Assembly: GCA_964502525.1 (NCBI GenBank)
Contig: CAZCXH010000002.1
Span: 28,031 to 92,030 of the forward strand
Direction: 5' to 3'
DNA: 64,000 nt
From: an uncultured Chitinophagaceae bacterium
GTDB taxonomy: Bacteria > Bacteroidota > Bacteroidia > Chitinophagales > CAIOSU01
Made by a program: the position numbers and the translations under genes. Below are positions 468 through 40,528 of this stretch, piece after piece (within the stretch, counting starts at the first letter, position 1; every line of letters starts with the position of its first letter). The notes under the pieces were generated by a model, which made no database searches, was not told the origin of the DNA, and saw only the letters and a list, made by a program, of their open reading frames with translations.

Positions 468-501
468 AGACCTGACAGGTTTTTAAAAACCTGTCAGGTC
501 T
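468..501. repeat. GACCTGACAGG palindromic element, copy 1 (just after the serA stop)
   Basis: AGACCTGACAGGTTTTT/AAAAACCTGTCAGGTCT is a perfect 34-nt palindrome. A partial extra half (CAGACCTGACGG) lies at 455-466. Confidence 0.9.
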
Positions 502-9624: not shown

Positions 9625-9657
9625 GACCTGACAGGTTTTCGAAAAACCTGTCAGGTC
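9625..9657. repeat. GACCTGACAGG palindromic element, copy 2 (between divergent thpR and udg starts)
   Basis: GACCTGACAGGTTTT-CGA-AAAACCTGTCAGGTC has perfect 15-bp arms. Confidence 0.9.
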
Positions 9658-35063: not shown

Positions 35064-35759
35064 TTAATCCAGCGGCAGGTAGAATCTGCCGTCACGGATA
35101 TAATAATTTTCCCCGGTGCCTGAAACTGAAATATCTGCCGTGAAAGTTCCTTCAGAGTGACTGGTATTGTTAATGATATCAATGGAGAAGGTGACCACCG
35201 TGATGCCTCCGGCAACCGGGTAGGCAATTTTTCCGGAGTTGGTGAATACCACCTTTAAAGCAATGCAGGCAGAATCCGTTCCGCAGAGGGGAAAGGTGGT
35301 AACCTGCAAAGCAGGTATTCGCGACACAATGATCGAATCAATTTCACCTCCAACTGGAAACACGCCAGAGAAGTCATAGAACTTCCAAATCGTATCTTCC
35401 TGCGTATAGTTGCTGGTCTTCACATTACTCATCGCTGTCGTATCGGAGCCAAACCAGAATCGGATGTAATAAGCCGGATCGCGCTGGTCGCAATTAGCGC
35501 CTACCCAACCCTGGATACAACTGCAGCCGCACGGAGGTGAAAAAAGGCCTCCATAGCTATAGACGCCATGAACCACGTTGGGCGGACAGTGGAAGTTGAT
35601 GCTGTCATTCAGGCATGTGCAATCAGCCTGCACAATTTGACAATCAGAGCACCAATTGAATGAGCAATCATCATGTTTGTCCTTGCATGAAGGAATAAGA
35701 AATATAAAACTGGCGTTAATAACAATCATCCAAAAATTTAACGCTTGCCTTCTTTGCAT
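35064..35759 (-). CDS. Cys-rich lipoprotein with EGF-like motif
   Basis: It has a lipobox (FLIPSC) and 14 Cys in the first roughly 90 mature residues, including CSCIQGWVGANC. The C-terminal region is beta-rich. Confidence 0.6.
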   Translation of the reverse strand: MQRRQALNFWMIVINASFIFLIPSCKDKHDDCSFNWCSDCQIVQADCTCLNDSINFHCPPNVVHGVYSYGGLFSPPCGCSCIQGWVGANCDQRDPAYYIRFWFGSDTTAMSNVKTSNYTQEDTIWKFYDFSGVFPVGGEIDSIIVSRIPALQVTTFPLCGTDSACIALKVVFTNSGKIAYPVAGGITVVTFSIDIINNTSHSEGTFTADISVSGTGENYYIRDGRFYLPLD

Positions 35760-35772
35760 CTCGTTTGTATTT

Positions 35773-36027
35773 AACGTGAGTTATGGATTCAAAACTATCT
35801 CGCAACTGTCCTCATTGCCATCCGCTTTAGCGGATGGCAATGAATTTCAATAAGTTAAGTTACCCTGGTTGTTTCAAGTCTTCCGAAGGAGGACTTGGAA
35901 CATGGGATAGAGGAAGGTCTTTCGACCTTCCGGCAAGACGAAAGTCTTGCCGTTATTACGAATCACAAGTGTCCCTTCGGAACACTTGCGATAACGGGTA
36001 TCTTGTCGGTAATCCATAACTCACGTT
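35773..36027. other. 255-nt multi-hairpin element closed by a perfect 17-bp stem (candidate structured RNA / 5' leader, or nested palindromic repeats)
   Basis: AACGTGAGTTATGGATT (35773-35789) pairs perfectly with 36011-36027. Inside are five near-perfect hairpins: 35815-35840, 35875-35897, 35912-35931, 35932-35951 and 35966-35988. There is also a CCGTTAT/ATAACGG helix. Confidence 0.5.
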
Positions 36028-36034
36028 TATATTG

Positions 36035-36065
36035 AAAACTTACTATTAAAAAGTCACCCTCCAAA
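36035..36065 (-). promoter_or_regulatory. candidate promoter TTTG-N19-TAAGTTTT reading into the 255-nt structured element and the lipoprotein gene
   Basis: On the minus strand, TTTG (36065-36062) is followed by a 19-nt spacer and TAAGTTTT (36042-35). This is an imperfect -7 box ending 7 nt before the first base of the 17-bp closing stem. Confidence 0.35.
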
Positions 36066-36162
36066 TGACATTTGTCAATTTGAATTAAAGTCTGCCGGAT
36101 AACCAACCCGCCCATTCATGGCAATTACAATCCCGAGCGATGCATACAAAAAGAAAGTTTTA

Positions 36163-36220
36163 CTCCTCTCCATCCGGAATGGGTTGAGGTGAGGCGTAAA
36201 AGAGCAATTTTTAGAACTGC
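36163..36220 (+). repeat. degenerate CCTCTCC element with AATTTTTAGAACTGC tail
   Basis: CTCCTCTCCATCCGGAATGGGTTGAGGTGAGGCGTAAAAGAGCAATTTTTAGAACTGC shares its head and 15-nt tail with 49555-49601. Confidence 0.6.
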
Positions 36221-36222
36221 GC

Positions 36223-37197
36223 TTAAACAATTTCATGCACATCAATATCCGCGCATTTGAAATGCCCTTCCGGGCAGTTGCGGAAGCCATGGATGCCGCA
36301 TGGTCTGCAGGAGAGATGTTCCCGGGTTTCTGCAACCTTCGACTTGCCGGAAAGAGGCGTAAAACCAAATTCCGGAACTGTTGAACAATAAACCGCTGTC
36401 ACCGGAGCATCCACCGCTGATGCCAAATGAAGCGGGGCAGAGTCGTTCACGTAATTCATCACTGCGCTTTTCATCAGCGCTGCCGACTGCATGAGGTTGA
36501 TCTTGCCCGCAAGGCTGATGACTCTTTCTCTTGCCGATTTGCCGCGGATATATTCGCACAAAGCGGCATCGTCCTTTCCTCCGAGCAAATAAATTGCAAA
36601 GGACTTGTCAATCAGCCCGATCAATTCAATCCATTTTTCCTTTGGCAACTGCTTGGTGAACCAGATGGAGCTGGGGGCGATGCAAACAAAACTTTCATCT
36701 TTTTTCACCTGCGCGAAATCTTCCGCTGAAGGATATATTTTGGGTTTCACGAAACTGTCGTCCGTAAGATGCCTGATGAGCATGAGGTTGCGCCCGGTTT
36801 CGTGCACCGGCATTTCTTTTGAGCCGAGGATGTGTTTGACTCTTTTGCCGAAAAGGAACGACATCGGATTTTTATCGAAACCGGCTGTCTCCTTAGCGCC
36901 TGAAAAAGCCGCGAGCAACCCGGTTGAGAAAAAACGCTGCACGGTAATCACCGCATCATACTTTCTTTTTCTGATTTCTCCCAGCATCCGCAGCAGGTTG
37001 GCGGTTTTGTTTTGCGATTTATCCCAAACCAAAATCTCATGGATGTGCGGGTTGTTTGCAAGCAGGATTTCGTTTCCTTTGCGCAGCAGGAAATCAATCC
37101 TTGCCTGCGGGTAAAACGCATGAAGCTTTTCAACTAACGGTGTGGCGAGGATGACGTCACCGATAAAGGCAGTTTGGATGATGAGGAAGTTGTTCAG
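36223..37197 (-). CDS. glycosyltransferase family 9 (LPS heptosyltransferase-like)
   Basis: The frame is open to 37197 and encodes LNNFLIIQTAFIGDVILATP, the conserved GT9 N-terminus. There is no ATG/GTG/TTG before the TTG at 37032, so a CTG (37197) or other non-canonical start is implied. Confidence 0.8.
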   Translation of the reverse strand: MNNFLIIQTAFIGDVILATPLVEKLHAFYPQARIDFLLRKGNEILLANNPHIHEILVWDKSQNKTANLLRMLGEIRKRKYDAVITVQRFFSTGLLAAFSGAKETAGFDKNPMSFLFGKRVKHILGSKEMPVHETGRNLMLIRHLTDDSFVKPKIYPSAEDFAQVKKDESFVCIAPSSIWFTKQLPKEKWIELIGLIDKSFAIYLLGGKDDAALCEYIRGKSARERVISLAGKINLMQSAALMKSAVMNYVNDSAPLHLASAVDAPVTAVYCSTVPEFGFTPLSGKSKVAETREHLSCRPCGIHGFRNCPEGHFKCADIDVHEIV

Positions 37198-37347
37198 ATG
37201 TTAGATGGCGGATGTTAGATATTAGATATTAGATATTGGATATTAGATATTGGATGTTAGATGTTAGATATTGGATGTTAGATATTGGATGTTAGATATT
37301 TAGATATTGTTCGTCTAACATCTAATATCTAATATCTAAAATCTAAC
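37198..37347. repeat. 16 tandem heptamers ATRTTRG followed by an inverted arm of 4.7 CYAAYAT units
   Basis: The units are ATGTTAG/ATATTAG/ATATTGG, and 14 of 16 fit ATRTTRG. The right arm is CTAACAT CTAATAT CTAATAT CTAAAAT CTAAC. The element fills the whole murB-GT9 intergenic gap. Confidence 0.9.
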
Positions 37348-40493: not shown

Positions 40494-40528
40494 AAGACCT
40501 GACGGGGTTTTATAACCTGTCAGGTCTT
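40494..40528. repeat. GACCTGACAGG palindromic element, copy 3 (next to the IS256 remnant)
   Basis: AAGACCTGACGGGGTTTTATAACCTGTCAGGTCTT is an imperfect copy. Confidence 0.8.

Follow-up and report, generated by a model that had tools for sequence, protein, structure and literature searches.

A 255-bp element with IS982-family ends, probably a MITE, between a lipoprotein gene and its promoter in an uncultured Chitinophagaceae bacterium

Correia-type MITEs are often found between a promoter and its gene, and their TIRs, when transcribed, pair into a long stem. In Neisseria the Correia stem is a substrate of RNase III, and the ends of the elements can serve as promoters. MITEs with a different parentage have been described from the Cardinium endosymbiont of Oedothorax gibbosus, where MITECca01 and MITECca02, which are approximately 240 bp in length, derive from the IS982-family element ISCca4 (PMC9769881). 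Their inverted repeats are ACGTGAATTCGGGATT and ACCTGAGTTCGGGATT (PMC9769881 supplement). Each of these 16-bp repeats is identical at 13 of 16 positions to ACGTGAGTTATGGATT of the element described below.

Here we describe a 255-bp element in a 64-kb stretch of DNA from an uncultured Chitinophagaceae bacterium (the window, meaning the whole stretch that was analysed). The element is bounded by a perfect 17-bp inverted repeat (35773-35789 and 36011-36027, 100% complementary) that encloses five strong hairpins. By our estimate, the chance of finding such a 17-nt pair no more than 300 nt apart anywhere in 64 kb is about 1e-3. An earlier interpretation of the same letters, the sequence-only reading, had left the choice between a novel structured 5' leader or sRNA and a nest of palindromic mobile hairpins with MITE-like termini. 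We conclude that the element is very probably an IS982-family-derived MITE, inserted between a lipoprotein gene and its promoter. The features of the locus, in order of position, are as follows.

35064-35759, minus strand: intact Cys-rich lipoprotein gene, 231 aa, downstream of the insertion, with its ATG at 35759
35768-35772: left flank TATTT, putative degenerate target-site duplication, with four of five bases as in the right flank TATAT
35773-35789, no strand: left TIR, AACGTGAGTTATGGATT, perfect complement of 36011-36027
35790-35797, minus strand: outward-facing TAGTTTTG, a -7-like box of putative function, just inside the left TIR and directed toward the lipoprotein gene
35812-35843: hairpin 1, perfect 15-bp arms with 2 nt between them (alternatively a 14-bp stem with a 4-nt loop)
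35870-35902: hairpin 2, 87% complementary, inverted copy of hairpin 5
35912-35931: hairpin 3, 8 bp, perfect, loop TTTC, inverted copy of hairpin 4
35931-35952: hairpin 4, 9 bp, perfect, loop GAAA
35950-35956 and 35991-35997: CCGTTAT/ATAACGG helix
35962-35992: hairpin 5, 86% complementary, nested in the CCGTTAT/ATAACGG helix
36011-36027, no strand: right TIR, AATCCATAACTCACGTT
36028-36032: right flank TATAT, putative degenerate target-site duplication; the empty site of the relative has a single ATAAA-like stretch here
36035-36065, minus strand: host promoter-like pair TTTG-N19-TAAGTTTT, outside the element and belonging to the lipoprotein locus
ending at 36223, minus strand: GT9 heptosyltransferase-like gene, on the other flank of the element

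The architecture that had been noticed in the letters, a perfectly paired closing stem of 17 bp, five near-perfect hairpins and the CCGTTAT/ATAACGG helix, is present in full at these positions. With the ISfinder convention of an AC end the element would start at 35774. Hairpins 2 and 3 together align with the reverse complement of hairpins 4 and 5 at a score of 43.4, against 9.1 +/- 5.3 for shuffled sequences, which bears out the earlier claim that the two halves are diverged inverted copies. The stem differences between the copies are paired, again as had been claimed: the three stem positions that distinguish hairpin 3 from hairpin 4 are all compensated, and between hairpins 2 and 5 there are one compensated change and two wobble shifts. 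Hairpin 1 is without a partner in the right half of the element. The interior is a degenerate long palindrome, with hairpins 2 and 3 mirroring hairpins 4 and 5, plus one extra hairpin. The element has a G+C content of 45%, and its five hairpins are G+C-rich. Its interior is non-coding. The longest internal ORF would encode 61 aa, for which a protein search, in which spurious gene calls on other copies of the element were also sought, found no homologue among 5.8e9 proteins. No IS982 transposase was found in the 64-kb window by tblastn with an IS982 transposase as the query.

The identity of the element was approached through its ends. The exact 17-mer was scanned against one genome per species (596 Gb), giving at least 105 loci. 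By chance alone, approximately 70 matches to a 17-mer are expected in 596 Gb. About one third of the matches listed are unrelated and non-Bacteroidota (Proteobacteria, cyanobacteria and Firmicutes), and represent chance, other repeats or conserved genes. The remaining matches listed cluster heavily in Bacteroidota MAGs, and it is on these clustered matches that the argument from the TIR rests. At least some 18 loci are in the Chitinophagaceae MAG CAZSEG, and at least five are in one complete Cyclobacteriaceae chromosome (OZ245942). The 17-mer is also frequent in PMXD "bog_950" and in the Lentimicrobiaceae MAG JBAZWY, where several copies sit close to or at the ends of contigs, as is characteristic of a repeat on which assemblies break. 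In these loci the base before the 17-mer is nearly always a T that closes an A/T-rich stretch, and the base after it an A, beyond which the sequence is family-specific.

Two of the loci contain a complete insertion sequence. In L096 and L105 perfect inverted copies of the 17-mer are 1011 bp and 1025 bp apart, respectively, and enclose one gene each, of 284 aa and 304 aa. Both proteins match the NCBIfam model NF033520 (IS982 family transposase) above its curated cut-off (E values of 1e-57 and 9e-56), as well as the Pfam domain DDE_Tnp_1_3. At the right end of both full-length elements are the last codons of the transposase and its stop (..AAT CCA TAA). The same transposase is found beside the 17-mer in L015, where the 17-mer forms one end, and in contig-end fragments of JBAZWY and CAISWS. 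The 17-mer bounds IS982 transposase genes and is therefore the TIR of IS982-family insertion sequences. What had been called a closing stem is simply a pair of TIRs of the kind that bounds the IS982-family insertion sequences of Bacteroidota.

The 17-mer also occurs in a setting of another kind. In Pseudomonadota MAGs (L042, L052, L058, L064, L090 and L102) it forms part of another multi-copy hairpin element, GAATCCATAAC-ctgc-AACGTGAGTTATGGATTC with a second hairpin after it, and this element lacks the IS982 MITE architecture of the Bacteroidota elements.

Short relatives with the same ends are numerous. At no fewer than about 20 loci a second, inverted TIR with 0 to 3 mismatches lies 203 to 384 bp away with no transposase between the two. 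The 17-bp IS982 end bounds many hairpin-rich elements of 200-400 bp in MAGs of Chitinophagaceae, Cyclobacteriaceae, Saprospiraceae, Cytophagales and Bacteroidales. Immediately outside the TIRs, at least 10 elements, including the full insertion sequence L105, have perfect 5-bp direct duplications, as listed here by locus.

L008: AGCTT
L080: AATTT
L002: AAATT
L046: AAATT
L035: ACCTT
L079: ACTTT
L044: AATAA
L066: ATTAT
L104: AAGTT
L105 (full insertion sequence): AATCT

Several further elements have duplications of 4-6 bp that are one base out of register, and a few are without any. Whether the terminal A and T belong to the element or to the target is a matter of choice, so that a 7-bp TANNNTA duplication with AC...GT ends is an equivalent reading. 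AC...GT ends are the ISfinder convention for IS982. One 206-bp element has at least five copies in chromosome OZ245942, each with a different target and duplication, which is the behaviour of a MITE. Sister elements whose ends are identical to those of the window element have transposed with target duplication. Since the same IS982 end is found on many elements across Bacteroidota MAGs, IS982-derived MITEs, described for Cardinium (PMC9769881), appear to be common in free-living Bacteroidota.

Several other features of these elements were observed. In L027 (1188-1232, Fibrisoma limi) and L101 (1419-1463) there are 45-bp mini-elements that consist of two inverted TIRs and a spacer of approximately 11 nt; these may be minimal IS982 MITEs or excision footprints. 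The MITEs of CAZSEG (L008, L033, L043, L062, L063, L065, L067, L070, L076, L080 and L085) share the TIR and are numerous, and their interiors are mosaics of shared modules in varied combinations (AACCACATAGAAACATAG and GTTTGCGTAAGCAAAC being two such modules), as though modules had been reshuffled between MITE copies. At a distance of about 60 nt from the TIR, MITEs of approximately 250 bp in PMXD bog_950 (L028, L037 and L086) contain the hairpin ATTGCCGTCTGCTTTAGCTGACGG, which is similar to hairpin 1 in the window (ATTGCCATCCGCTTTAGCGGATGG) and differs from it by one compensated A-T to G-C change, a match too short to be statistically secure.

The locus itself was compared with that of the nearest relative. 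Among 5.8 billion proteins the lipoprotein has a single homologue, P0001, which is 90% identical and is encoded on two Logan contigs (L107 and L108). The genes there are in the order GT9 gene, lipoprotein gene and Zn-peptidase gene, as in the window. On the minus strand of the window a promoter-like pair had been noticed, and it reads as TTTG at 36065-36062, 19 nt, and TAAGTTTT at 36042-36035, ending 7 nt before the element; the 13 nt between the other end of the element and the ATG were likewise confirmed. A sigma-70 promoter scan found none, the sigma-70 model being uninformative for Bacteroidota. The intergenic region is conserved in L107 and L108, including both promoter motifs and their 19-nt spacing, and the 255 bp are absent. 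The distance from the -7 box to the ATG is 18 nt (CGGGATAAAGACCATAAG) in these contigs, whereas the window has 7 nt, then the 255 bp and a further 13 nt between the two. The relative keeps the gene order and the promoter without the 255 bp and therefore shows the empty site, relative to which the element is an insertion. Synteny in relatives had been proposed as a check on the element, and the answer is that the locus is present and the element is not. Between the lipoprotein genes of the window and L107, dN/dS is 0.14 and dS is 0.37. Because of this dS, the mismatch between the flanks TATTT and TATAT would fit a somewhat aged duplication in a fast-evolving leader.

Two repeats elsewhere in the window are recorded here. 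Approximately 14 tandem 7-nt repeats (37191-37346; ATCTAAC/ATCCAAT on the minus strand) abut the 5' end of the GT9 heptosyltransferase-like gene, the start-codon position of which is CTG in the window and TTG in L107. A different 8-nt repeat (GCACATCA) occupies the same place in L107 (1-30). A contingency locus for an LPS/glycan transferase, phase-variable through strand slippage, is one possible reading of the array. A second, unrelated palindrome, GACCTGACAGGTTTT...AAAACCTGTCAGGTC, with stems of 14-15 bp, occurs three times in the window (468-501, 9625-9657 and 40496-40526), with six arm matches where 0.04 would be expected, and resembles a family of REP-like or terminator hairpins.

In the mechanism that we propose, the 17-18-bp TIRs would be the sites recognised and cut by an IS982-family DDE transposase, presumably supplied in trans by a full-length insertion sequence elsewhere in the genome. 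Insertion would have taken place in an A/T-rich, TANNNTA-like site 7 nt downstream of the lipoprotein -7 box, approximately at the transcription start, and about 5 bp of the target would have been duplicated in the process.

The window holds one copy of the element and no further ones. A second copy with the same interior was not found by blastn among the 105 listed loci, where the sole match was a Logan contig of this same locus. The junctions of TIR and subterminal sequence, right and left, were each scanned against metagenomes, with 0 matches in both cases, and blastn against plasmids gave no match. Nor do any of the five hairpins recur as solo copies elsewhere in the window or in the 105 listed loci. 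The mobile-DNA alternative of the sequence-only reading is right in its central claim, as the MITE-like termini are IS982 TIRs and the element is absent from the site of the relative; a nest of hairpins that move independently is not supported. No similarity of the interior to IS982 sequence could be detected, and we infer derivation from a parental insertion sequence from the ends alone. Two short Logan contigs, L109 and L001, belong to the same organism as the window. L001 (from SRR14932511, 1460 nt) ends inside the element just before hairpin 2, which shows that short-read assemblies break at the element.

The predicted fold is very stable. The folding energy is -122.8 kcal/mol on the plus strand (z = -11.2, 200 shuffles) and -124.1 kcal/mol on the minus strand (z = -13.7, 200 shuffles), and none of the 200 shuffled sequences reached the native stability; values of -121.5 and -123.1 for the two strands were also obtained. 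Of the two strands, which are equally stable, one has 4 G-U pairs in its fold and the other 7. The wobble pairs of hairpins 2 and 5 lie on the plus and the minus strand, respectively, which is what inverted copies of DNA should show. A further 13 MITEs that have these TIRs but other interiors also fold below their shuffled sequences on both strands, mostly by a wide margin (for example -110.9 against -37.8 shuffled in L051, and -118.5 against -58.8 in L008). Hairpin-rich, near-palindromic interiors therefore typify the MITE population and are not special to this locus. From the paired changes in the hairpin copies it is evident that the palindromes have been maintained, be it as RNA or as DNA. 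The sequence-only reading had recognised no conserved motifs of RNase P, tmRNA, SRP, 6S or the common riboswitches, and the Rfam scan agrees, with no family at the gathering score across the whole window. At E values up to 10, the region 35500-36300 gave only chance-level matches, the best with E of at least 0.4 (a CRISPR repeat, E = 0.43, and RT-16, E = 1). A retron, which the weak RT-16 match brought to mind, was rejected; the match (E = 1) is largely outside the element, and there is no reverse transcriptase close by.

These results bear on two other explanations of the element as a whole. If it were an evolved structured RNA, either a riboswitch-like cis-regulatory 5' leader or a minus-strand sRNA, the 17-bp stem would be a genuine RNA helix. 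The Bacteroidota-type promoter-like pair would place the start of the transcript at the stem, the minus-strand fold is very stable (z = -13.7), and the stems have been kept intact by paired changes. However, the orthologous leader of the nearest relative has the conserved promoter 18 nt from the ATG without the element, and this empty site already largely refutes an RNA of that kind. The stem is moreover the TIR of a transposon family, folding energy is without strand asymmetry, an Rfam match is absent, and the 105 listed loci and two metagenome scans supplied no homologous copies for covariation. Unrelated MITEs with the same TIRs are likewise far more structured than shuffled sequence. The first alternative of the sequence-only reading, a novel leader or sRNA evolved as an RNA gene, is not supported, and we regard it as highly improbable. 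The element may nevertheless be transcribed as a leader, as a by-product of its insertion site. The element could instead be a one-off remnant of a full-length IS982 that lost its interior in place, a dead scar that never transposed as a short element. Eroded 250-bp remnants of ISCca4 have been described as early stages of MITE birth (PMC9769881), and the single copy in the window, with no companion of the same interior there, among the 105 listed loci or in the metagenome scans, is in keeping with such a history. Against it, the interior holds no trace of a transposase or of IS982 subterminal sequence and is instead a palindromic hairpin array like those found in propagating MITEs that have these TIRs, and its two TIRs have stayed perfect. 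Sampling of the lineage is very thin (three short contigs in the protein-indexed assemblies), so the failure to find copies is weak evidence. We consider a remnant of this kind quite unlikely, and retain the interpretation as an IS982-derived MITE as the most probable one.

Whether such a MITE has acquired a role in lipoprotein expression is a separate matter. By convention, position -7 is given to the last base of the Bacteroidota -7 motif, so the start from the host promoter is predicted at about 36028, the base adjoining the element. An mRNA from this promoter would include the entire element in a highly structured leader of 268 nt; it would begin with a TIR, and the two TIRs would be paired into a 17-bp stem ending 13 nt before the ATG. 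Transcription might alternatively come from the outward-facing -7-like box TAGTTTTG at the gene-proximal end of the element, with a start at about 35783. This box agrees perfectly with the -7 consensus of Bacteroidota, TAnnTTTG, although there is no TTTG at -33. Translation in Bacteroidota is initiated without strong Shine-Dalgarno pairing.

A co-opted MITE could control the lipoprotein gene through the new promoter box or as a structured leader, which might act on translation or on the stability of the mRNA in the way that Correia elements do by means of RNase III. The insertion point nearly coincides with the transcription start predicted for a conserved promoter, the box at 35797-35790 faces the gene and would leave a UTR of 24 nt, and a 13-nt A-rich unpaired stretch precedes the ATG. 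The gene is intact and under purifying selection (dN/dS 0.14), although this ratio spans the whole divergence and is silent on the time since insertion. A match to TAnnTTTG is not rare in 255 A/T-rich bases on two strands (about 0.1-0.2 expected by our estimate), and the -33 TTTG is absent. We regard co-option as rather improbable. We give little credence to a wider proposal, in which the IS982-type MITEs of Bacteroidota would be mobile carriers of stable RNA/DNA hairpin arrays and this copy would have been co-opted as a leader or -7 box. Were such carriage and co-option true, the compensated hairpin changes would reflect selection on structure and the expression of the lipoprotein would be set by the element.

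The interpretation as an IS982-derived MITE has practical consequences. The appropriate annotation for the element is mobile DNA (an IS982-type MITE), as opposed to a candidate RNA gene. IS982-type MITEs often break assemblies, and they will keep yielding false calls of "novel structured RNA". The window and L107 form a natural pair, with and without the insertion, for the effect of a 255-nt structured leader on expression.

Among known systems, the element resembles the Correia elements (CREE/NEMIS) of Neisseria as well as RUP, ERIC and BOX in being short, TIR-bounded, palindromic and non-coding. It differs from Correia elements in its unrelated sequence, its transposase family and its host phylum, and the TA target duplication is theirs. 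With the full-length IS982 insertion sequences of Bacteroidota (L096 and L105; ISCca4) it shares identical 17-bp TIRs, and both these and elements of its own kind have A/T-rich targets with a 5-bp duplication in other copies. The window element is without a transposase gene and measures 255 bp as opposed to approximately 1.0 kb. The Cardinium MITEs differ from it in being high-copy (PMC9769881), as opposed to one copy in 64 kb, and in retaining a few bases of ISCca4 subterminal sequence. The interiors of MITECca01 and MITECca02 are unrelated to it, the last 120 nt or so of MITECca01 being A/T-rich (PMC9769881). These Cardinium elements nevertheless share with it the phylum (Bacteroidota), the size class (approximately 240 and 255 bp), the non-coding nature, the type of repeat and IS982 as the parental family.
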